A DNA stretch of 64,000 nt. Source: an uncultured Acidobacteriota bacterium (GTDB lineage: Bacteria; Acidobacteriota; JAQAZP01). The stretch covers positions 1,952,001-2,016,000 of the forward strand of contig CAWIIB010000001.1 in assembly GCA_963836075.1 (NCBI GenBank). The letters are read 5' to 3'. The position numbers and the translations under genes are program-made. The notes below the pieces were generated by a model, which saw nothing but the letters and a program-made list of their open reading frames with translations, was not told the origin of the DNA and made no database searches. Shown here piece by piece: positions 9,263 to 64,000 of this stretch. Positions within the stretch are counted from its first letter, which is position 1; each line of letters opens with the position of its first letter.

Positions 9263-9378
9263 ATGAACTCCAGCGACAGCCGGGATGACGAATTCTATCG
9301 AGCAGAACCGGCTCTTTTCATGTACAATATAGCTTCCATCGCCATATGGGCAAGGTCTTCCAGGGGGAGGGGATTCCG

Positions 9379-11742
9379 ATGGGAGCTGTTCTTCTGCTGT
9401 CCGTTCTCATCCTCACCTGCGTTGCCGGTGGAACAGCGCCGGCCGGCGAGGTGCTGGAAAGCGAGATGACCCTGGAACTCCGGACCGCTGACTACCTGAT
9501 TGTCGACGGGCCGGATGGACAGCGGATCAAGATGGAGGATGCCTGCAGCTTTGCCCGTCCGGGAGCGCCGCTGCTGCCCGCACAACGGCTGCTGGTCCTC
9601 CTCCCGCCCGGTGCCCATTCCCCGCGGCTCTCCCTGGAGGTTCTGGAAAGCGAGCGCCTGCCCGGCACGTTCCGCATCGAACCGGCCCCGCCGCTGCTCC
9701 TTGCCTCGGGGCCGCCTGCCGCTCGCGGCCGCCCCCCATCGACCGATACCGTATGGCACAGGACGTGGCAGGAATGCTATTCGACGGATGCTCCCTGCCC
9801 GGCCGAAGCGGTGGTGATCACCGGCCAGGGCACGCTCCGGAAATACGCGTATGTCTCCATCGCCTTCCGCCCCTTCACCTGGCGGCCGCTCAGCGGCCGG
9901 CTGTACAACAACAGGGCCGCACGAATCCGCATCCGCTTCCAGCTGCCTTCCCCCGGCAGTGAGCAAGCCCGGCAGACCTCGCTGCTGCTCCGGGACCATG
10001 CAGCCGACCTGCGGGCGGCGCATCTGTTCGTCAACTTCCAGGAGATGCAGGACCTCTATCAGCCGGATCCGGCCGACACCACCGGGCGCGAGATCTACGA
10101 CTACGTCATCGTCACCACCCCCGGCCTGCTGCCGACGGTCGCCGCTTCCGATTTTGTTGCCTGGAAAACCACTTTAGGCCACAGTGTGCGCGTGCTGTCG
10201 ACCGACGATCCCCTGATCGCCGACGAAGAGGGACGGGACCTGGCCGAGCGTATCCGCACATTCCTCCGCAAGGCCTGGCCGCAGTGGGGGATCGAGTATC
10301 TCCTGCTGGTGGGCAGTACGGCCGACCTGCCCATGCGCTTCTGCAACCCCGACCCGGACGACCACTGCACCGACCCGGACCCGCTCAACTGTACCATTTC
10401 GCGGGTCCCCACCGACCACTACTACGCCGACCTCTCGCTGCCCGACGACGACTCCTGGGACTCCGACCACGACGGCTTCTATGGCGAGTATCAGCAGGAC
10501 ACCCCCGACTTCATGGCCGAGATCGCGGTGGGCCGGATGCCGGTCAGCGATGCCGGGCGGGTTATCTACACCCTGGACAAGATGGTCCGCTACGAAGCGG
10601 ACAACGGCGCGTGGAAAAACCATGCACTGCTGGGCGGGGCGATCATGAACTACGCCAACCAGGACCATGGCGGCGGCCCCTTCTGCGATGGGGCGGCCTG
10701 CGTGGCGATGATCGAGGACGACCTGCTCGGCGGCTGGCAGGTCAGCCGCCACAGCGAGCAGGAAGGACTGGTCCCCTCGAGCTATCCCTGGCTGCCGATC
10801 AGCGCCCCGAACTTTGGCAACGACTGGCAGGGTGGCCAGTACGGCCTGGTGAGCTGGATGGCCCACGGCCACGCCAACGGCGGCTACCGGGCGGTCTGGC
10901 GCTGGGACGACGGCGACGGGGTGGCCGAAACCAATGGCAATGACGGGTTCGAGATGCTCACCTTCATCAGCACGGACACCGTTCTCGACGACGACCACCC
11001 CTCGCTGGTCTGTGCCATCGGCTGCATGCTCGGCGTTCCCGAACCGAACAGCATGGGCCGGTTCGCCGTCGACCTGCTCACCGACCCGACCGGCGGCCCG
11101 GCCGCCGGCATCGCCGCGGCCTCCCGGTCGTCGGCCTACACCTCGAACTGGCCCGCCACCCCGGGTGGAGACGCCTCGTTGTGCTACGAGTTCAACCGCT
11201 ACCTCATCGACGGCCCCGACGGACCGGAGCGGGCTGGTGACGCGCTCTATCATTCCAAATTCTTCGTTCACCAGAATTTCGGCTTCGATCACTGGTACGA
11301 ATATCTCAACATGCACGGGCTGCAGTTCTACGGTGACCCGGCCATGGCCCGCAGCGGTGCAGCCGGCCCTCCGGCCACCCTCGACGCAGCGCTCACCTGC
11401 CAGCCGGCAACCGGCACCCTGCCCTTCTCCACCCGGATGACCGTCTGGATGACCAACCTGCACCAGGACCAGTCGCGCCGTTTCTCGGGGCGGATCAACT
11501 TGACCCGGGCTGACGGCGTTCACTACGCCAACTGGCGGGCCGGCTGGACCAACGTGGCCGGCGGTGCCTCGTTCTCGACGTCATGGCAGCAGGTCATTCC
11601 TGCCCTGGGCGCGCTGGAGGGCGAAAACGTCTTCACCTTGCTGGTCGAAGACACGACACCCGCTCCGTACAATCTTCCGCCCTACCCGCCAGCGGGCGAC
11701 ACCGACAGCGATAGCGTCACGGTTGAGGGGAACGTGCCTTGA
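9379..11742 (+). CDS. Secreted C25 (gingipain-like) cysteine peptidase with propeptide and a shared 121-aa C-terminal domain
   Basis: Signal peptide; propeptide motif RPGAPLLPAQRLLVLLPPG; DYVIVT, EYLLLVG, PTDHYYADL, EIAVGRMP, catalytic His (MAHGH) and Cys (AIGC), YGDP. GGAGG precedes ATG 9379. Confidence 0.88.
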   Translation: MGAVLLLSVLILTCVAGGTAPAGEVLESEMTLELRTADYLIVDGPDGQRIKMEDACSFARPGAPLLPAQRLLVLLPPGAHSPRLSLEVLESERLPGTFRIEPAPPLLLASGPPAARGRPPSTDTVWHRTWQECYSTDAPCPAEAVVITGQGTLRKYAYVSIAFRPFTWRPLSGRLYNNRAARIRIRFQLPSPGSEQARQTSLLLRDHAADLRAAHLFVNFQEMQDLYQPDPADTTGREIYDYVIVTTPGLLPTVAASDFVAWKTTLGHSVRVLSTDDPLIADEEGRDLAERIRTFLRKAWPQWGIEYLLLVGSTADLPMRFCNPDPDDHCTDPDPLNCTISRVPTDHYYADLSLPDDDSWDSDHDGFYGEYQQDTPDFMAEIAVGRMPVSDAGRVIYTLDKMVRYEADNGAWKNHALLGGAIMNYANQDHGGGPFCDGAACVAMIEDDLLGGWQVSRHSEQEGLVPSSYPWLPISAPNFGNDWQGGQYGLVSWMAHGHANGGYRAVWRWDDGDGVAETNGNDGFEMLTFISTDTVLDDDHPSLVCAIGCMLGVPEPNSMGRFAVDLLTDPTGGPAAGIAAASRSSAYTSNWPATPGGDASLCYEFNRYLIDGPDGPERAGDALYHSKFFVHQNFGFDHWYEYLNMHGLQFYGDPAMARSGAAGPPATLDAALTCQPATGTLPFSTRMTVWMTNLHQDQSRRFSGRINLTRADGVHYANWRAGWTNVAGGASFSTSWQQVIPALGALEGENVFTLLVEDTTPAPYNLPPYPPAGDTDSDSVTVEGNVP

Positions 11743-40181: not shown

Positions 40182-40516
40182 GCTGATTCGCCTCTGGGGA
40201 TTCGCACGGCACCGCCATAAAGTGGTGCCTTCCTTGAAACATCATAGAGGACGGTATTTGGGGAGTCAACGAACGCCGGGTCAACAGGAAGCGGCGAACC
40301 GATCGCTCAACAAACAACCCGGAATTTGCCTGCTCGGCGCAAAGCAGCTATATTATATGGAGGCAGTAAACATTTTGGTGGCCGGCACTGTCCGGGCACC
40401 TGTATCTCAATGTCTCGACCGTGTATATCCACAGCGCGCCGGCACAAGGAGCTGTACGGGGATACCCGCCGTCATCAGCCCTGGCCAGCGGCGTGCAGGC
40501 CAACGGATCTCCGATC

Positions 40517-41740
40517 ATGTGTCACCGGTCCTTCCCCGGTATGATCCTGCTGTCCGCCCTGCTGCTCGTCCTGGGCGCCGGGCCATTGTCTGCCGACTCG
40601 CCCTGGAACATGCACGTCATCGACGGCAGCCTCACCGGCGCAGACGGGGTCAAGATCAAGGACATCAACGGTGACGGCCATCCCGACATCGCCAGCGGCT
40701 TCGAAGAAGGCAACGAGGTCCGCGTCTATCTCCACCCCAAGTATGCCCGGGTCACCTCACCCTGGCCCGCGGTCACCGTGGGCCAGGTGAACGGGCCCGA
40801 GGACGCGGTGTTCGTCGACCTGGACCGCAACGGCGTCCAGGACGTGGTCAGCTGCACCCAGAGCAAACTTGGCGGACCGACCAACGCGCTCTTCGTCCAC
40901 TGGGCCCCGCCCGACCCGGACCGCTACCTCGATCCCGAAGCCTGGACCACCGAGGTGATCCCGGCCAGCCAGGGCCGGAGCTGGATGTACTGCGAGCCGA
41001 TGGTGGATGGCGGCGCCATCCGGTTGGTCTGCGGCAGCAAGAACCGGGACGCCGCCATCGGCTACTTCACCGTCATTGGCAACTCTCCGGCCGACTGGGC
41101 CTGGCATCCCCTGCGCCGGGCCGGCTGGGTGATGAGCCTCGAGATCACCGACATGGACGGTGACGGGGACAAGGACGTGCTCTACTCGGACCGCAAGGGC
41201 GCCGACACGGCGGTGGGCTGGCTGGAGAATCCCAGCCACCCCGACGGGCTATGGGCCGACCATGTCATCGATTGCAGCCTCGGCATACCGGACCGGATGG
41301 GCCTCTACATGTTCCTCACCAGAAGCGACATCGACAATGACGGCCTGGTGGACGTGGTGACCGCGGTGCGCCAGCGGCGCATCCACTGGCTCCGGCGGCT
41401 GAACGACTCGGGCGACTCCTGGGAAAAGATCCTCATCCCCGCCCCGGCAGAGGCCGGTTGCGTCAAATCGGTGGCCGCCGGTGACCTGGACGGCAACGGT
41501 ACGGTGGACCTGGTCTTCTCCTGCGAGCAGGCGGACAACCGGCCGGGGCTGATGTGGCTCTCCCGCGACGGCCCGGGCCAGGACTGGACGGCCCACGACA
41601 TCGGCGGGCTGCCTGGACGAAAGTTCGACCTGGTAAGGCTGGCCGACCTGGATGGCGACGGCGACCTGGACGTGATCACAACCGAAGAACGGACCATCGA
41701 CGCCGTATTGTGGTATGAGAATCCCTTGACCGGCCGCTAG
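40517..41740 (+). CDS. Secreted FG-GAP/VCBS repeat protein
   Basis: Repeats DINGDGHPDI, DMDGDGDKDV, DIDNDGLVDV, DLDGNGTVDL, DLDGDGDLDV; ends WYENP; start uncertain. Confidence 0.88.
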   Translation: MCHRSFPGMILLSALLLVLGAGPLSADSPWNMHVIDGSLTGADGVKIKDINGDGHPDIASGFEEGNEVRVYLHPKYARVTSPWPAVTVGQVNGPEDAVFVDLDRNGVQDVVSCTQSKLGGPTNALFVHWAPPDPDRYLDPEAWTTEVIPASQGRSWMYCEPMVDGGAIRLVCGSKNRDAAIGYFTVIGNSPADWAWHPLRRAGWVMSLEITDMDGDGDKDVLYSDRKGADTAVGWLENPSHPDGLWADHVIDCSLGIPDRMGLYMFLTRSDIDNDGLVDVVTAVRQRRIHWLRRLNDSGDSWEKILIPAPAEAGCVKSVAAGDLDGNGTVDLVFSCEQADNRPGLMWLSRDGPGQDWTAHDIGGLPGRKFDLVRLADLDGDGDLDVITTEERTIDAVLWYENPLTGR

Positions 41741-51628: not shown

Positions 51629-52597
51629 ATGAAAGCATCCACCTTTTTAACGCTCATACTTCTCCTGGCCTCATCGGTGGGAACCGTCGCGGACGGGCTC
51701 ACCCCCGGCCAGACCCAGGAGCTGCTGCTGAGGGTTCCGATCCCCGACTGCCACCCCGGCGGGATTCTTTCCCAGCAACTGGTCACCGGCTGTGACACCA
51801 TCGAGGATCTCGACGTGGCGCTGGAGATCGACCACCACTGGACCGGCGACCTGGTGGTCACCCTGGAGAGCCCCGAGGGGACCCGGGTGACCCTGGTGGA
51901 CCGGCCCGGTTTTGACGGCTCGGGGTACGGCTGCCCATTTGCCGGACTGTCCGCCCTCCTCGATGACGAGGCGGCCACGGCATTGGAGGACCAGTGCATC
52001 GACGATAGCGGCGGAACCATCCCGGCCATCAGCGGTGTCCTGTCCCCCAGCGAACCGCTGGCCTCCTTTGACGGCGAGCTGGGATCCGGGGTCTGGACCC
52101 TGCGGGTCAGCGACTGGGCCGAGGAGAACACCGGAAAACTGATGAACTGGCAGCTGCAGTTCCAGTGCAGTTCACGCGACGTGGACCTCCAGCCGGAGCT
52201 GTCCGCCGACCGCACCTGGGCCAGTCCGGGGGACACGGTGATCTTCACCCTCCATCTGCTCAACGCCGGCAGCGAAGCGGCCAGCGGAGTGGAGGCTGTC
52301 TACGACCTGCCGGCCGGGTTCGACTGGCTGTGGGCCGAACCGGGGGCGCTGGCCGATGGTCAGTTGATCATCCAGCGCCACGGCAACCTCGAGCCGGGTG
52401 AAACGGCCGAGGCCCGGCTGGCGCTGACCGTCACCCCGGGCCAGTGGGGCGAACTGAAACTTTCAGCCCTCGTCCGGGCCGAGCAGACCGACAGCTACCC
52501 CTGGAACGACCAGGTGAGCGCCGGTATCCGCGTCGGCCCCGGGTCCGGCGGCCACACCGCATCTGACATTCAACAGCACGTGGAGATAAAACAATGA
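51629..52597 (+). CDS. Secreted protein: proprotein-convertase P domain + DUF11
   Basis: IDHHWTGDLVVTLESPEGT…GVWTLRVSD…GKLMNWQL; PGDTVIFTLHLLNAG…D…ND. Confidence 0.8.
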   Translation: MKASTFLTLILLLASSVGTVADGLTPGQTQELLLRVPIPDCHPGGILSQQLVTGCDTIEDLDVALEIDHHWTGDLVVTLESPEGTRVTLVDRPGFDGSGYGCPFAGLSALLDDEAATALEDQCIDDSGGTIPAISGVLSPSEPLASFDGELGSGVWTLRVSDWAEENTGKLMNWQLQFQCSSRDVDLQPELSADRTWASPGDTVIFTLHLLNAGSEAASGVEAVYDLPAGFDWLWAEPGALADGQLIIQRHGNLEPGETAEARLALTVTPGQWGELKLSALVRAEQTDSYPWNDQVSAGIRVGPGSGGHTASDIQQHVEIKQ

Positions 52598-52623
52598 CCG
52601 GGCAGCGGAGAATGGAGGAACCC

Positions 52624-54852
52624 ATGGCGGATCGGCGGAACAGACGTCACGGTGCCCGGAAGCTGCTTCCACTGCTGCTGGTCCTGCTGCTCGGTGCGGC
52701 CTGGCCGGCAACGGCCCAGATCACCAACGGCGGATTCGAGACCGGCAGCCTCTCCGGCGGCTGGGTTACCGGCGGAGGCGACCGGGTGGAGGTGCTGGAA
52801 GGGGACGAGTTCAGACCGGACATCACCGCACCCGAGGGCGACTGGCTGGCGCTGCTCACCACCGGCCCCGGTGATATCTGGGGCGGTCCCAGCGGGGACT
52901 GGGACGGTAATGGCACCACCGACTACGACATGTCCACACTGAGCATCAGCTTCGACACCAGTGAGCCGGTGATGCTCAGTTTTCTCTGGGACTTCTTCAC
53001 CGCCGAAGAAGACCAGCCGGACCAGTACGACGACTATTTCATCGTCTCCCTCGACGGTGCAACGGTCCTGGCTCACAGTTCGTATCACCCGGGCGGGGGG
53101 TCGCCATTCCCGGACACACCTCCCTATGACGGCACCCGCTACCGGATCGACAGCAACGGCCAGGCGGACAACAACGATTTCCGCAGCGGCCGCTGCGGGG
53201 TGCAGCAGTTCCAGGTGACCATCGACACCCCCGGGACCCACACCCTGGTCTTTCTCATCGCCGACCAGGCCGATTCGCAATACGACAGCGGCCTGCTGAT
53301 CGACGACGTGTTTGTGGCGCCGCACACCGACCTCTGGATCACCAAGGACGACGGTGTGACAGTGGCCCTGCCCGGTCTGCCGCTGACCTATGTCATCACC
53401 GTGGGCAACGACGGCCCCAACGATGCGCCGGGCAGTCTGGTCACCGACATATTCCCGCCGGAACTGAACAACATCAGCTGGACCTGCGCCGCCACCGGCG
53501 GCGCCAGCTGCCCGGGGAGCGGCAGCGGCGACATCAACGAGCTGGTGGACCTGCCGGTGGGCTCCACGGTGACCTTCACCGTGGACACCACCGTCGATTC
53601 CGGCGCCTCGGGCACACTGAGCAATACCGCCACCGTGGATATCCCCCCCGGGATGTTCGACACCGACGACAGCAACAACAGCGCCACCGACACCGATTCC
53701 CTCGACCCCTCGCTGCTGCCGGTCCAGATAACCGATTCCAGCGGCGACAACGTGATCGTGAAGGACGGCGGGTGGCACTGGATCCCCATCGCCAACCACC
53801 AGGCCGCGCTCAGCGACAACGGAAGCGTCCTGGCCTTTGTCTCCAACGGCGACTTCACCGGGAACAATACCGATCTCGGATCCGAGATCTTTGTCCACAC
53901 CGACGGCGGGGATATCGAGCAGGTCACCGATGTCCCGGCGCCGGTGGCCTTTGACCACGCCGCAACCCCGGCCCTCTCGCGCAACGGACGCTGGCTGGTC
54001 TTCACCTCCACTGCCGACCTCACCGGCGGAAACCCGGACTGGAACCGCGAAGTCTTCCGCATGGACCGCAACAATGACAACGCGATAACGCAGGTCACCA
54101 GCACCACAACCGGAGAGCAGGGTAGCCCCACAGTGACGAACAACGGCCGGCGGATCTCCTTCACCACCACCGCATCCGACCTGATCAGCGGCTTCAATGC
54201 CGACGGCAACCAGGAGGTGGCGGTGTGGAACAACGGTGCGCTCCGCGGGTTCGAGTCCACGGGCTGCCACAACCACACACCGAGGATCAGCCGGCACAAC
54301 CAGGGGCGCTACGTGGCCTTCACCAGCAACGGCAACCTCACCGGGGACAACGCCGACATGAACAATGAGATCTTCCAGTGGCGCTGGGACCAGGGGGACA
54401 GCGGCATGAACCAGGTCACCGATTCCCAGGGCCTGCTCAACGATGTGGCCTGCACATCTCAGGACGGCAGCCTGCTGGCTTTTCTCTCCAACGCCGACTA
54501 CACCGGCCAGAACGGAGACAACAGTCTCGAGGTGTTCACCTGGGACCGCAACAGCGGCAACTTCACCCAGGTGACCGTCAGCAGCCAGCTGGTGCTGCAC
54601 ACCATGGTGGCCATGGACGACGATGAGGACTACCTGGCCGTGGAGCGGTTCAACATCCTCTCCGGCAGCTTCGAGATCCACCATATCGACCTGGGATCGG
54701 GCAGCTCCACCCTGGTGGTCAGCGGCGAGTCATTCCTGCCGACCATCGGAGTCAGCGGCTCGACAACGGTGGTGGCCTTCGAGTCGACGGAGGACTACGT
54801 GGGTCTGAACGGCGACGGGAACAGCGAAATCTGGATCGCCCGGGTGGAGTGA
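52624..54852 (+). CDS. Secreted protein: beta-sandwich + DUF11 + TolB-like beta-propeller
   Basis: ITNGGFETG, DLWITKDD…YVITVGNDGP…NNSATDT, repeats AFVSNGDFTG…NxEIF. Confidence 0.8.
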   Translation: MADRRNRRHGARKLLPLLLVLLLGAAWPATAQITNGGFETGSLSGGWVTGGGDRVEVLEGDEFRPDITAPEGDWLALLTTGPGDIWGGPSGDWDGNGTTDYDMSTLSISFDTSEPVMLSFLWDFFTAEEDQPDQYDDYFIVSLDGATVLAHSSYHPGGGSPFPDTPPYDGTRYRIDSNGQADNNDFRSGRCGVQQFQVTIDTPGTHTLVFLIADQADSQYDSGLLIDDVFVAPHTDLWITKDDGVTVALPGLPLTYVITVGNDGPNDAPGSLVTDIFPPELNNISWTCAATGGASCPGSGSGDINELVDLPVGSTVTFTVDTTVDSGASGTLSNTATVDIPPGMFDTDDSNNSATDTDSLDPSLLPVQITDSSGDNVIVKDGGWHWIPIANHQAALSDNGSVLAFVSNGDFTGNNTDLGSEIFVHTDGGDIEQVTDVPAPVAFDHAATPALSRNGRWLVFTSTADLTGGNPDWNREVFRMDRNNDNAITQVTSTTTGEQGSPTVTNNGRRISFTTTASDLISGFNADGNQEVAVWNNGALRGFESTGCHNHTPRISRHNQGRYVAFTSNGNLTGDNADMNNEIFQWRWDQGDSGMNQVTDSQGLLNDVACTSQDGSLLAFLSNADYTGQNGDNSLEVFTWDRNSGNFTQVTVSSQLVLHTMVAMDDDEDYLAVERFNILSGSFEIHHIDLGSGSSTLVVSGESFLPTIGVSGSTTVVAFESTEDYVGLNGDGNSEIWIARVE

Positions 54853-60697: not shown

Positions 60698-62473
60698 TCA
60701 GGGCGCCACCCCGGTAACCGTGCAGACCGCGCTGGCCGTGTCGCCGGCCGGCGGGTAAGGCGGCTGGTTGTAAGGCGCCACGGTGATGTCCTCCACCGAG
60801 AGGGTGAAGACGTTGTTCCCCACCACCGACCCCAGGGCCGGGATGGTGGTGTTCCACACCGCATCGTAGCTTGCTCCGGCAGCCACATTGGTCCACCCGG
60901 CCCGCCAGGAGCCGAAGGAGGCGCCGCCGGCCAGGGCCACATCCATCCGCCCGGCGATCCTTCTGGACTGCCCGCTGTACAGGTTCCCCAGGCTGACAGT
61001 CATCTGGGTGGTGAAAGGCACGGTGCCCGCAGACGGCAGGCAGGTCAGCGACGCCGCGACCGTGTCAGTCACCGCCGGCCGCAGACCGGCCACCTCGGCC
61101 AGGGTGGCGGCACAGGCCTGGGAGATCTCGTAGCCGATGTGGGCCGTGGCCGCCACATTGGCCCAGGTGTCCGAGGTCTGGTGGTAGTGGGGGTAGGAAC
61201 CCCAGTCCCAGTCGATGGCCAGGAAGGCCGGGATGCCCGCCTGCTGGAAGGGCACGTGGTCGCTGCCCCAGCTGTAGTAGTCCTTGCGGCTGCTCAGCGT
61301 GGTGTAGTCGGCCACCGCGTCCTCCATCACGCTCATCAGTGCCTCCCACTCGGTCTCGCCCTCGATGAGCACCCCGTAGTGCGAGCTGTAATAGGTCACC
61401 ATGTCGGCAGTGATCGCCGAGACGATCACCCGGCCGGCGGCGATGGCCTCGTCGACGAAGTGCTCGCTGCCGTTGAGACCCTGCTCTTCGCAGTCGAAGA
61501 GCACGAACTGCACCGAACGGTCGAAGTCGTAACCCGCGGCCATCCGTGCGATCTCCATCACCAGGCAGGAGCCCGACCCGTTGTCCTCGGCCCCCGGGGC
61601 CAGGGTGGACGCCTGGGGACTGGTGGAGTCGTAGTGCGCTCCCAGCACCACGTACTCGTCAGGGGTGGTCACACCGGTTTTCGTGGCCACCACATTGCGG
61701 CAGGGCTGGCCGTTGAAATAGAAGCTCTCGAACTCCACGGTGTAGCCGTAGTCTTCCAGTATCCCGAAGAGATAGTCCCCCACCAGGTTTTTGGCGGTGG
61801 TGGAGTAGTAGCGCGTGCTCACCGAGTGCCAGTTGCCGTTGTACCAGAAACTGGCGGCCCCGGTGATCTCCTGCAGCATCAACTGGAAGGCCGACTCGTC
61901 ACCTTCGGCCAGAAAGGCGGCCACGTCCACCGGATCGGCCAGCCGGCTGCCGCCGGTACGGCCCACCGATTCTGTCAGCCGTTCCCCGTAGCCCTCCCAG
62001 CCGGCCGGCGGCGGGTCAAGGGGGATGCGCTGCATCCGGAACTGCTGGCCCGGGAAATCGTCCAGCGCACCAGCCGGCACCTCCAGCAGGGCAAAACCGC
62101 CATCCCGGAGATGCACCATCCCGAACTGCTCCAGACTCCTGATGGTTGTCATCTGGGGCTCGCTCCCCGCCCGCAAGGGCCTCGCATCCACCAGGAACCA
62201 CTGGCTCCGCGGGTAGGCCGCAACAAAGGGTTCGCCGGAAACCACTGCCCCGCTCTCCCCCAGGCGGTCGGCCAGCAACAGGCCGCCGGGCAAATCCCAG
62301 GCGAGCAGGGCCACCGACGGCTCGAGGGCGAGCTTCTCCACCGCTCCGGCGCGGTCAAGGCCGGGCAGGTATGAGATGCCTGAGGCCGAGGCCACGGCCG
62401 GAATCAGCAGGATCAGGGCGGACAGGACGACCACCGGCACTGCGGCCGGGAACGGGATACGACGTTGGAACAT
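60698..62473 (-). CDS. Secreted M28 metallopeptidase with the shared 121-aa C-terminal domain
   Basis: GAGGAG RBS, signal peptide, NVVA, GAHYDS, PGAEDNGSG, EEQGLNGS, SDHVPF, YHQTSDT. Confidence 0.92.
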   Translation of the reverse strand: MFQRRIPFPAAVPVVVLSALILLIPAVASASGISYLPGLDRAGAVEKLALEPSVALLAWDLPGGLLLADRLGESGAVVSGEPFVAAYPRSQWFLVDARPLRAGSEPQMTTIRSLEQFGMVHLRDGGFALLEVPAGALDDFPGQQFRMQRIPLDPPPAGWEGYGERLTESVGRTGGSRLADPVDVAAFLAEGDESAFQLMLQEITGAASFWYNGNWHSVSTRYYSTTAKNLVGDYLFGILEDYGYTVEFESFYFNGQPCRNVVATKTGVTTPDEYVVLGAHYDSTSPQASTLAPGAEDNGSGSCLVMEIARMAAGYDFDRSVQFVLFDCEEQGLNGSEHFVDEAIAAGRVIVSAITADMVTYYSSHYGVLIEGETEWEALMSVMEDAVADYTTLSSRKDYYSWGSDHVPFQQAGIPAFLAIDWDWGSYPHYHQTSDTWANVAATAHIGYEISQACAATLAEVAGLRPAVTDTVAASLTCLPSAGTVPFTTQMTVSLGNLYSGQSRRIAGRMDVALAGGASFGSWRAGWTNVAAGASYDAVWNTTIPALGSVVGNNVFTLSVEDITVAPYNQPPYPPAGDTASAVCTVTGVAP

Positions 62474-62604
62474 GGTACTCCTCGTGAAATCAGATAAGGG
62501 GCAAGGCAACCAGGCAGGAACAACCACGGCGGCGAAACTGCCTTTCCATACTATAGGTCCTGAAATCGACTCAGTCCACAAACGCGCCTGCTATTAATGG
62601 GGTG

Positions 62605-62852: not shown

Positions 62853-63491
62853 ATGCGACTGCTGTTGTCGATACTGGTTCTGGTTCTGCTCAATCCCCTG
62901 GCCGCTTTTGCCGGCTGCGCACCGCAAAAGATGGTCAAGATCACCTTCCGTGACGCCACTCCCGGCTACGAGAAGGGCGACTTCGCCACGCAGCCCAAGA
63001 CCCTCTACCGCTGGGGTTCCCATTTCGCCCGGCTGGAGGAGCAGCCCGACCTGGAGAACGGCGTCCATGCCCTGGTGGTGGTCAACAACCGTGACACCTG
63101 GATGGTCAACAGGGCAGCCAGGACGGGCCGGCACATCGTGGACCGGGCCGAGACCTTTGACTTCCATGCCCCGCTGGTGGGCAGTCACGACAGCCCCTTT
63201 GCCGAGTTCGAGTTCGGCTGTGAACTGGCCTACATGCAAGAGAGGGGAGTCGAACCGACATCGGTCATCATCGCCGACCTCACACTGCTGCAGTATGAGT
63301 ATTCAACAGGAGGTGCGCTGACCATCCGGTTGATGATCGATCCCCAGACCCGTCACCCGTGGGCCGTGGCAGTGATCGAGCGGGGTCAGCCCGTCTACTT
63401 GCTACGCTACGTATCCTACGAAACCGGCCTGGAGCCGGATATGGACCTCTTCACCAAACCTGCCGAAATTGAGTGGGAAGCGTCCGAGTAG
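62853..63491 (+). CDS. Exported hypothetical protein
   Basis: Signal peptide MRLLLSIL…AFA; GAGG RBS; coding-like composition. Confidence 0.7.
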   Translation: MRLLLSILVLVLLNPLAAFAGCAPQKMVKITFRDATPGYEKGDFATQPKTLYRWGSHFARLEEQPDLENGVHALVVVNNRDTWMVNRAARTGRHIVDRAETFDFHAPLVGSHDSPFAEFEFGCELAYMQERGVEPTSVIIADLTLLQYEYSTGGALTIRLMIDPQTRHPWAVAVIERGQPVYLLRYVSYETGLEPDMDLFTKPAEIEWEASE

Positions 63492-63588
63492 CGTAGACTG
63501 GTTGCCGCCACCACGTTTGACAACATCGGCAAAACCTGCTTCCCTGAAGAAAGCTCGTAGCACAGAAGTTCCCACCGGAGGTTGTACA

Positions 63589-64000
63589 ATGAAACGCGAA
63601 TTCATTTTCTCTATTGCTCTTCTCCTGGCCTGCTCCACGGCCGTTGTTACGGTTCATGCCGCGGAGGATCAGGGCTCACAGCCGGTGGTCAAGCTCGACC
63701 CGCTGCTGGCCCGGATGGTTCACAGCGGCACGGTCAGCAACAGCGCGCCGCTCACCCCCGCCGGGATGGTGGTGGTGAACATCTTTCTCACCGATCAGGA
63801 GGGCGACGCGGTGAGCCGCCGGGTGCGGCAATCACACCAGGAGAAGGTGGATTCTCTGGGCAATGAGATCATGGAGCGCCGCCGCCGGCATTTCCCCCAC
63901 GATAGACTCCTCCGCGAGGCGGAAGAAAAGCTCTTCGTCCACTACTGGGGCAATTTCCGGCCGGCGGACGATCAGGAGCGGATCCGGCAGTTGAAGGTGG
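63589..64000 (+). CDS. Exported protein, N-terminal part only (possibly a protease propeptide)
   Basis: GGAGG then ATG 63589: MKREFIFSIALLLAC…KLDPLLARM…; open to the window end; absent from the supplied ORF track. Confidence 0.6.
   Translation, partial: MKREFIFSIALLLACSTAVVTVHAAEDQGSQPVVKLDPLLARMVHSGTVSNSAPLTPAGMVVVNIFLTDQEGDAVSRRVRQSHQEKVDSLGNEIMERRRRHFPHDRLLREAEEKLFVHYWGNFRPADDQERIRQLKV

Follow-up and report, generated by a model that had tools for sequence, protein, structure and literature searches.

A probable new C-terminal address label on exported proteins of an uncultured Acidobacteriota lineage

The 64,000-nucleotide stretch of DNA analysed here, hereafter the window, belongs to contig CAWIIB010000001.1 (positions 1,952,001 to 2,016,000, forward strand) of assembly GCA_963836075.1, from an uncultured Acidobacteriota bacterium. 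It carries two peptidase genes on opposite strands, whose products end in the same domain of 121 amino acids (aa), called the tag in what follows. In window coordinates, the features of these genes are as follows.

9346..11742, + strand: C25 (gingipain-family) peptidase gene (hydrophobic N-terminus, propeptide, C25 domain, short linker, tag)
10102..11346, + strand: Peptidase_C25 domain, residues 253-667 (Pfam E 8e-34)
11377-11739, stop 11740-11742, + strand: tag, copy 1 (173.7 bits, model positions 1-121, reaches the stop)
11650..11700, + strand: proline-rich loop of copy 1, domain residues 92-108, between the last two strands; conservation peak of the family
60698..62473, - strand: M28 peptidase gene, 591 aa (hydrophobic N-terminus, N-terminal region, M28 domain, tag)
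61145..61696, - strand: Peptidase_M28 domain (Pfam E 4e-35)
60701-61063, stop 60698-60700, - strand: tag, copy 2 (185.6 bits; both cysteines, 8 and 114)
60740..60790, - strand: proline-rich loop of copy 2, domain residues 92-108

The two final segments align without gaps, with 70 of 121 positions identical (E 6e-52); 20,000 shuffled controls average 9 identities and never exceed 21. Identity of the underlying DNA is 0.69, 0.74 and 0.56 at codon positions 1, 2 and 3, respectively. Because it is highest at the second position and lowest at the third, the tails correspond to a conserved protein domain under selection, and the same pattern rules out a DNA repeat or a mobile element. A search of the window against Rfam gave no match. 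Copy 1 lacks the second cysteine of the family (Cys114). The C25 open reading frame (ORF) of 798 aa starts at 9346 or 9379. For the M28 gene the most likely start is 62473, which agrees with database protein P0006 (591 aa), and not the TTG at 62581 chosen by the ORF finder; no RNA holder of the M28 gene was found among the matches listed. A first-pass annotation had proposed the shared domain, six conserved blocks, ends of the form TVxGxxP-stop, unrelated catalytic domains and a signal peptide on each enzyme. All six blocks and both ends are present in the two copies, Pfam recognises Peptidase_C25 with Propeptide_C25 in one protein and Peptidase_M28 in the other while leaving both tails unannotated, and each protein begins with a hydrophobic stretch, as judged by eye and with a hydropathy rule.

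The genome from which the window comes (6.23 Mb, 64% GC; G000 in the coordinates below) was searched with a profile iterated to convergence over its six-frame translations. This yields 226 matches in 225 ORFs, or 218 loci once eight split loci are merged. At least 80% of the model is covered by 194 matches, of which 181 reach the final residue of the ORF, nine end within 10 residues of it and four further in. Of these four, one is the inner of two copies in the same protein, two break off at model position 110-111, where a frameshift is suspected, and one precedes 420 residues. The final residue is proline in 164 of the 190 terminal copies. The median pairwise identity of the copies is 48%, and duplication of the tag is ongoing, since for 21 of the 190 copies there is a paralogue with at least 90% nucleotide identity. 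Seventy-six of the 194 carriers, picked because they cluster in the fetched regions, were scanned with Pfam; they contain FG-GAP propellers, beta-helices, C25, S8 and M6 peptidases, peptidyl-arginine deiminase, LVIVD, BNR and FGE domains, and 25 of them match no family at E 1e-5. Many carrier ORFs start in mid-repeat, which suggests that single-base frameshifts in the assembly break many carrier genes; ORF lengths and N-termini taken from this assembly are therefore unreliable.

Some copies call for separate mention. A long ORF at window 63469-64000 (+), extending to G000:C1:2018357, begins with a signal-peptide-like stretch, and a third copy of the tag lies about 2 kb past the window end, in two frames. 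A divergent subfamily of seven members, in which the proline-rich loop is missing or replaced and most members have an extra cysteine, is joined to the main family by HHalign with a probability of 99.6%. Its ORFs end at the following positions.

G000:C9:2392206, C9:2390488, C9:1050833, C9:666255, C1:1708557, C1:997674, C1:1911143: ORF ends of the divergent subfamily

At L096:2396-2845 (+), equivalent to G000:C1:1239395-1239847, a 150-aa ORF consists of a signal-peptide-like N-terminus and one divergent tag without cargo, possibly a decoy, a spacer or a remnant.

The terminal position is also observed beyond this genome. Among the matches listed, 248 database carriers, some of them from G000, include 243 with a terminal copy, nine of which have a second copy; the other five have internal copies only, one of them by just 15 residues. 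In 78 loci from metagenomes and a viral collection (best 80 of 349 matches), all 87 copies in closed ORFs are terminal, and the scan of the viral collection itself gave one weak partial match. Export signals were called with a hydropathy rule, a heuristic distinct from SignalP: 95% of the 169 Met-starting carriers of at least 450 aa have a strongly hydrophobic stretch in their first 45 residues, versus 3.6% for an internal window, and among these 169 a lipobox-like pattern occurs in two and a Tat motif in none. The GTDB class of this bacterium comprises three genomes, all of one genus, and the tag is abundant in all three, with at least 109 matches in each of the two sister genomes (109 of 109 candidates scored). 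A 108-row profile found no match in the 398 other genomes of the phylum, with up to 11 candidates scored per genome, so that the tag is confined to three of the 401 genomes scanned. A further genome (G401) gave three matches, all on one 4.2-kb contig (C16, L052) that is probably mis-binned; these were the only matches outside the class. Of 1.84 billion representatives, 504 match when the threshold is E 0.001, 465 when it is 1e-10 and 388 when it is 1e-30, so that the family is compact, with little twilight. Copies are equally alike within and between genomes (0.47-0.53), which rules out recent homogenisation within a genome and indicates that the family expanded before the three species arose. 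Tag and cargo have the same median identity (80%) in 33 best-hit pairs from other assemblies.

The tag family is uncatalogued, and belongs to no library tested. The two copies of the window have no match in Pfam or NCBIfam at E 1, and when 108 members were compared with both libraries at E 0.1, no family was matched by more than one member. In the PDB, a sequence search with one copy found no match better than E 0.079, and a search with the profile found none at all. The best ESM Atlas scores are 0.90-0.91, with recognition under the level at which that tool is reliable, and give a weak lead to CARDB only. The C-terminal domain (CTD) of type A cargo of the T9SS (type IX secretion system; TIGR04183/PF18962) matched 0 of 108 members at E 0.1, in a library for which the T9SS-type tails described below served as control, and CARDB (PF07705) matched 0 of 108 at the same threshold. 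FlgD_ig (PF13860) matched no member and gave one sub-threshold match per genome, its control being positive. Soli_cterm (TIGR03437) matched no member and was absent from the three genomes, with a silent control; exosortase (PF09721) was absent from the three genomes with a positive control, and rhombosortase was not searched. Dockerin (PF00404), characterised by a duplicated Ca-binding loop-helix, gave no Pfam match and an HHalign probability of 0.1%, the tag model being all-beta. Against ten tail families of homologues, several with alignments of only 3-7 rows, HHalign probabilities did not exceed 2.5%, the value obtained with the T9SS-A tails. In the literature covered by our search, to which most subscription papers and supplements were external, no paper describing the domain was found, and the term 'C-terminal' is not used in main-text passages of secretome papers on Acidobacteriota or sludge (PMC8528874, PMC11495043).

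An AlphaFold model built from 108 sequences (pLDDT, the predicted local distance difference test, of 97.8) is a confident prediction of an all-beta, immunoglobulin (Ig)-like sandwich: it consists of eight strands without any long helix, and its loop at residues 93-108 is ordered. In a fold search, the matches included RbmA (PDB 4be5, fibronectin type III (FnIII) fold; Z 11.9, root mean square deviation (rmsd) 2.6, 104 residues aligned) and AlkC (Z 11.0), and the CARDB domain 3idu came at Z 10.2 (rmsd 2.4, 98 aligned). These structural matches share 8-14% identity with the tag and show no clear winner, FnIII, CARDB, transglutaminase and macroglobulin domains being tied at Z 10-12; no solved T9SS CTD was among the matches listed. 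Conservation peaks in the proline-rich loop: residues 92-108 have a mean modal frequency of 0.85, versus 0.56-0.58 elsewhere in the tag, and D92, T94, P97, N99, P101, P102 and G107 are 95-100% conserved. Cys8 and Cys114 occur together in 128 of 189 copies, with about 110 expected if they were independent, which suggests a disulfide joining the first and last strands. The 20 positions that precede the tag contain no motif and no conserved residue (maximum 23%).

Such a common fold, together with ongoing duplication (21 of 190 copies), would be compatible with an Ig-like domain of generic function, such as a cap, a spacer or an aid to folding, that spread by domain shuffling and has no single partner. 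However, a spacer would not normally occur singly and at the very end of a protein, flush with the stop codon, the conservation is concentrated in one loop and not in the core, and the tag is mutually exclusive with another tail in this genome and with known tags in homologues, as described below. This explanation is improbable.

The expectations of the first-pass annotation for the family as a whole are borne out by these data, and none of the outcomes that it gave as refuting came up. Many paralogues were anticipated and 218 loci are found; constant C-terminal placement was anticipated and 190 of 194 near-full copies show it, frequent internal placement being absent; and the cargo is diverse, on proteins with signal-peptide-like N-termini. 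The domain had been said to match no recognised family, and the Pfam and NCBIfam searches of the tag are empty; it had been said to have neither a membrane tail nor a signal of the PEP-CTERM or GlyGly-CTERM type, and the AlphaFold model has no membrane helix. Likeness to CARDB or FnIII, searched for with the predicted structure, is that of a generic Ig sandwich. Finally, the domain was thought to sit where known CTDs sit, in agreement with the T9SS type A, dockerin or membrane tails that homologous cargo bears in that slot elsewhere.

This last point comes from homologue searches that used the cargo parts alone, with the tag removed. For C25, 8,000 scored candidates gave 107 homologues, of which 105 reach the junction. 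Their tails are of the T9SS-A/FlgD type in 41 cases, an unnamed 84-aa domain in 18, dockerins in 14, and of the Big_7, PF25275 and PKD types in seven, five and five; another unnamed domain accounts for three, the tag for two, short membrane tails for two and singletons for two, and six tails are shorter than 30 aa. When ten T9SS-type tails were scanned, eight scored above the TIGR04183 cut-off. For M28, where the best 120 of 249 matches were used, 117 of 119 non-self rows reach the junction; among the matches listed, 96 tails are of the T9SS-A/FlgD type, eight are the tag, four are dockerin-like by eye, two unnamed types account for three each, two resemble membrane tails and one is short. The source names on some homologue rows are Eisenbacteria, Krumholzibacteria and Zixibacteria. 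In a FastTree phylogeny of 83 C25 cores, from which short, partial and singleton rows were left out, nine tail types need 11 changes, and the three tagged enzymes form one branch within a group (99% local support) that also contains enzymes with T9SS-type and 84-aa tails. Given the tail types found at one junction, the final domain of C25 and M28 enzymes is exchanged by lineage, its known occupants being secretion signals or anchors; judged by these occupants, the slot holds anchors as well as secretion signals. Tail replacement as such, in whichever direction, is demonstrated by this comparison. One enzyme family thus bears at least nine different tails across lineages, several of them unnamed. 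Terminal domains without a Pfam match on C25 or M28 homologues, P0256 (18 rows), P0335 (3), P0360 (3) and P0362 (3), are each a candidate lineage-specific tag.

Another reading is that of a T9SS so diverged that family models miss it, with the tag as its signal. The cargo (C25, S8, M6, peptidyl-arginine deiminase, FG-GAP, LVIVD, beta-helix) does resemble T9SS cargo, and the failure to find SprA_N (PF14349), PorP (PF11751), GldN (PF19841) and TIGR04183 in any of the three genomes weighs little, because the controls were silent as well; SprA_N also matched none of 201 genomes of the phylum. Nevertheless, the sole PorV-family match is FadL-like and below the cut-off (48 vs 90 bits) with a positive control, and no SprA-sized barrel was seen on inspection of the 40 longest predicted proteins. 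The profile-profile probability of 2.5% with T9SS-A tails, given above, also argues against it. Passages of PMC11285876 describe T9SS CTDs as having about seven strands and very low mutual identity, as compared with 121 aa and eight strands for the tag, and state that T9SS genes are absent outside the Fibrobacterota-Chlorobiota-Bacteroidota (FCB) group. A cryptic T9SS is extremely improbable.

The tag is not the only widespread tail in this genome. Unbiased clustering of C-termini gives two large non-catalytic families, the tag (160) and an FG-GAP-type repeat (122). The latter, of about 330 aa, is found in 148 ORFs at 60 bits or more, 133 of them with the repeat within 10 residues of the stop (e.g., L095:4353-5342 (+)); its structure predicted from a single sequence has a pLDDT of 35, and HHalign relates it to the tag with a probability of 0.1%. 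The two tails share no ORF and have overlapping cargo families: 91 of 165 tagged cargoes have a homologue bearing the FG-GAP tail, up to 73% identical. Of 239 homologues of tagged cargo in the genome, 151 have the tag, 57 the FG-GAP tail and 31 neither, the last being mostly frameshift fragments by inspection, with three ending in a dockerin-like tail. The two gene sets lie nearer to each other than expected by chance: 42% are within 10 kb, as against a mean of 28% and a maximum of 37% under the null. Integrin FG-GAP propellers bind loops of FnIII domains. By analogy, the tag and the FG-GAP tail could be cognate partners linking enzyme sets into an extracellular network in the manner of cohesin and dockerin, with the 148 FG-GAP ORFs that never carry the tag, the shared cargoes and the co-clustering as its evidence. 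However, two alternative tags would be expected just as much to exclude each other and to share cargo, and tandem duplication with a swap of tails accounts for the co-clustering; we regard the pairing as very improbable.

A small third terminal family, of eight genes and dockerin-like by eye (e.g., G000:C1:417548-419206), is also present, and the genome has four cohesin-domain matches. Within the window, an FG-GAP protein at 40421-41740 (+) has neither terminal family, and a sulfatase and a TonB-dependent receptor are encoded downstream of it. Two abutting ORFs at 51629-54852 (+), with P_proprotein, DUF11 and PD40 matches, may be one frameshifted gene and also lack both tails.

As for secretion machinery, the genome has a PilM-Q locus and an operon resembling that of a type II secretion system (T2SS).

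L089:6455-17804 = G000:C1:2167454-2178797, - strand: T2SS-like operon (GspE/F, PilM/N/O-like platform, pseudopilins, secretin)

The secretin of this operon has N-terminal tetratricopeptide repeats (TPRs), an acidic linker and then a C-terminal cohesin domain. All NCBIfam matches of the core operon proteins are below the curated cut-offs, and GspE and PilB models score alike, so that a T2SS identity is deduced rather than assigned. The tag could be imagined as the dedicated cargo signal of this machine, read by the GspC-like protein at G000:C1:2172513-2173187, the N-domains of the secretin or its cohesin, and be the T2SS analogue of the T9SS CTD. The operon is syntenic in all three genomes (68-94% identical), where T9SS parts were not found, the C-terminus of the tag is flush and ends in proline, and in homologues the tag sits at the position of the T9SS type A signal, as attested by the eight of ten tails above the TIGR04183 cut-off. 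Moreover, part of PMC7949064 describes a loop on an Fn3 domain that is recognised by the T2SS for PelI/Pel3. On the other hand, secretin-type cohesin domains have matches in 118 of 201 genomes of the phylum, some not on secretins, versus three of 401 for the tag, so that the machine does not track the tag. The sub-threshold matches leave the nature of the operon presumptive, the T2SS treated in that part of PMC7949064 uses composite signals and not a single portable domain, and the two-copy and few internal placements are odd for a pure signal. Such a role is possible, though less likely than not, and ranks close behind the docking role preferred below; if true, it would provide a rare portable T2SS signal, useful for the study of cargo recognition and for surface display.

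A broader version of this idea would make the tag the cargo signal of an undescribed, domain-addressed export and display pathway outside the FCB group, in which a phylum-wide T2SS-like machine with a cohesin-tipped secretin serves different class-specific C-terminal domains, with two channels here (the tag and the FG-GAP tail) for about 350 proteins. We consider it rather unlikely. It would mean that a type II-like system, a kind whose choice of cargo is an open question, has a portable signal.

Altogether, the tag is probably a new address label on exported proteins. Our preferred reading, held tentatively and with a little less than even confidence, is that of a portable, lineage-specific and uncleaved docking tag that would hold exported proteins on or near the cell surface. 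The carrier would be exported by Sec into the periplasm by means of its N-terminal signal peptide. The tag would then fold as an independent eight-stranded Ig-like sandwich, usually pinned by the putative Cys8-Cys114 disulfide. The folded protein would cross the outer membrane, most plausibly through a T2SS-like system, chosen by exclusion. Finally, the tag would stay on, and its proline-rich loop would bind a single envelope partner common to the carriers, be it a surface polymer or a receptor protein. New genes, many of them common to other lineages, would be recruited by a tail swap to the tag. Retention is favoured by the lack of a cleavage motif, by a conservation of the tag that equals that of its cargo, by the concentration of conserved residues in the proline-rich loop, by the existence of two-copy carriers, by plain anchors in the slot and by the precedent of CBM37, discussed below; two terminal-region copies on nine of 248 carriers would suit avidity.

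Several observations weigh against docking. The near-strict terminal position and the terminal proline would suit a signal recognised by a translocon no less well, and in other lineages the slot is most often filled by the T9SS signal (41 of 105; 96 of 117). Glycan binding is at most putative, as the tag is net neutral to acidic (median charge -3). The seven divergent members with a missing or altered loop indicate that the loop is not needed in every case. The presence of carriers at the cell surface is itself putative. With our own gene calls on the frameshift-rich assembly, a hydrophobic N-terminus is found in 96 of 131 carriers and in 650 of 1,489 other long genes, a weak separation from a control that includes membrane proteins. 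No dedicated partner, scaffold or surface polymer was identified, and inspection of the listed neighbourhoods of divergent and stand-alone tags and of 55 barrel-like candidates revealed no evident receptor. It should be noted that retention and a secretion signal are compatible roles.

Whichever role applies, about 200 genes (4-5% of some 4,450 predicted) rely on a single uncatalogued module, and some 350 on the tag or the second tail. Since one enzyme family bears at least nine different tails across lineages, each tail can be taken to mark the exported proteins of an uncultured group and to give a handle on surface retention of hydrolases without a T9SS.

Comparison with known systems helps to situate the tag. 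Like CARDB (PF07705; 3idu) and the FnIII domain of RbmA (4be5), it has the overall fold of an Ig sandwich, but identity to them is 12-14% and they are tied with many unrelated Ig folds. Soli_cterm of Solibacter is a lineage-specific paralogous C-terminal domain with a proposed role in localisation; its model (TIGR03437) has 225 positions, versus 121 aa for the tag, and the searches above found it neither in the three genomes nor in the 108 members. FPm-1 of Fibrobacter, described in similar terms in part of PMC3079729, is basic, whereas the tag is not. The T9SS type A CTD (TIGR04183/PF18962) and FlgD_ig tails (PF13860) are, like the tag, terminal Ig-like sandwiches present on many Sec-exported proteins, with unrelated cargo and at the same junction. 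The tag differs from the type A CTD in its greater length, proline-rich loop and terminal proline, there is no sequence or profile similarity, and no T9SS components were found in its hosts; its paralogues (median 48% identity) are also far more alike than T9SS CTDs as characterised in passages of PMC11285876. Dockerin (PF00404) is, like the tag, a portable terminal docking module and occupies the same slot on 14 C25 homologues, but fold and sequence are different and no repeated scaffold was found for the tag. A further parallel is CBM37 of Ruminococcus albus, which, according to parts of PMC4081043, is confined to one species, exists in 51-102 copies, sometimes in tandem, takes the place of dockerins on orthologues and binds carbohydrate of the cell wall. 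The tag is likewise lineage-confined, with copies in the range of 50 to more than 100, occasionally tandem and found in place of dockerins. In contrast, its host is a diderm, its cargo consists mostly of peptidases, propellers and beta-helices and not of glycoside hydrolases, and it has no Pfam sequence match, no direct profile comparison with CBM37 having been made. By analogy, the tag would work like CBM37 or dockerin, while belonging to a family other than dockerin and probably other than CBM37. Lineage-specific terminal domains are thus already known as a kind, with the T9SS CTD, CBM37 and FPm-1 as examples, and the tag family itself is probably a new one.

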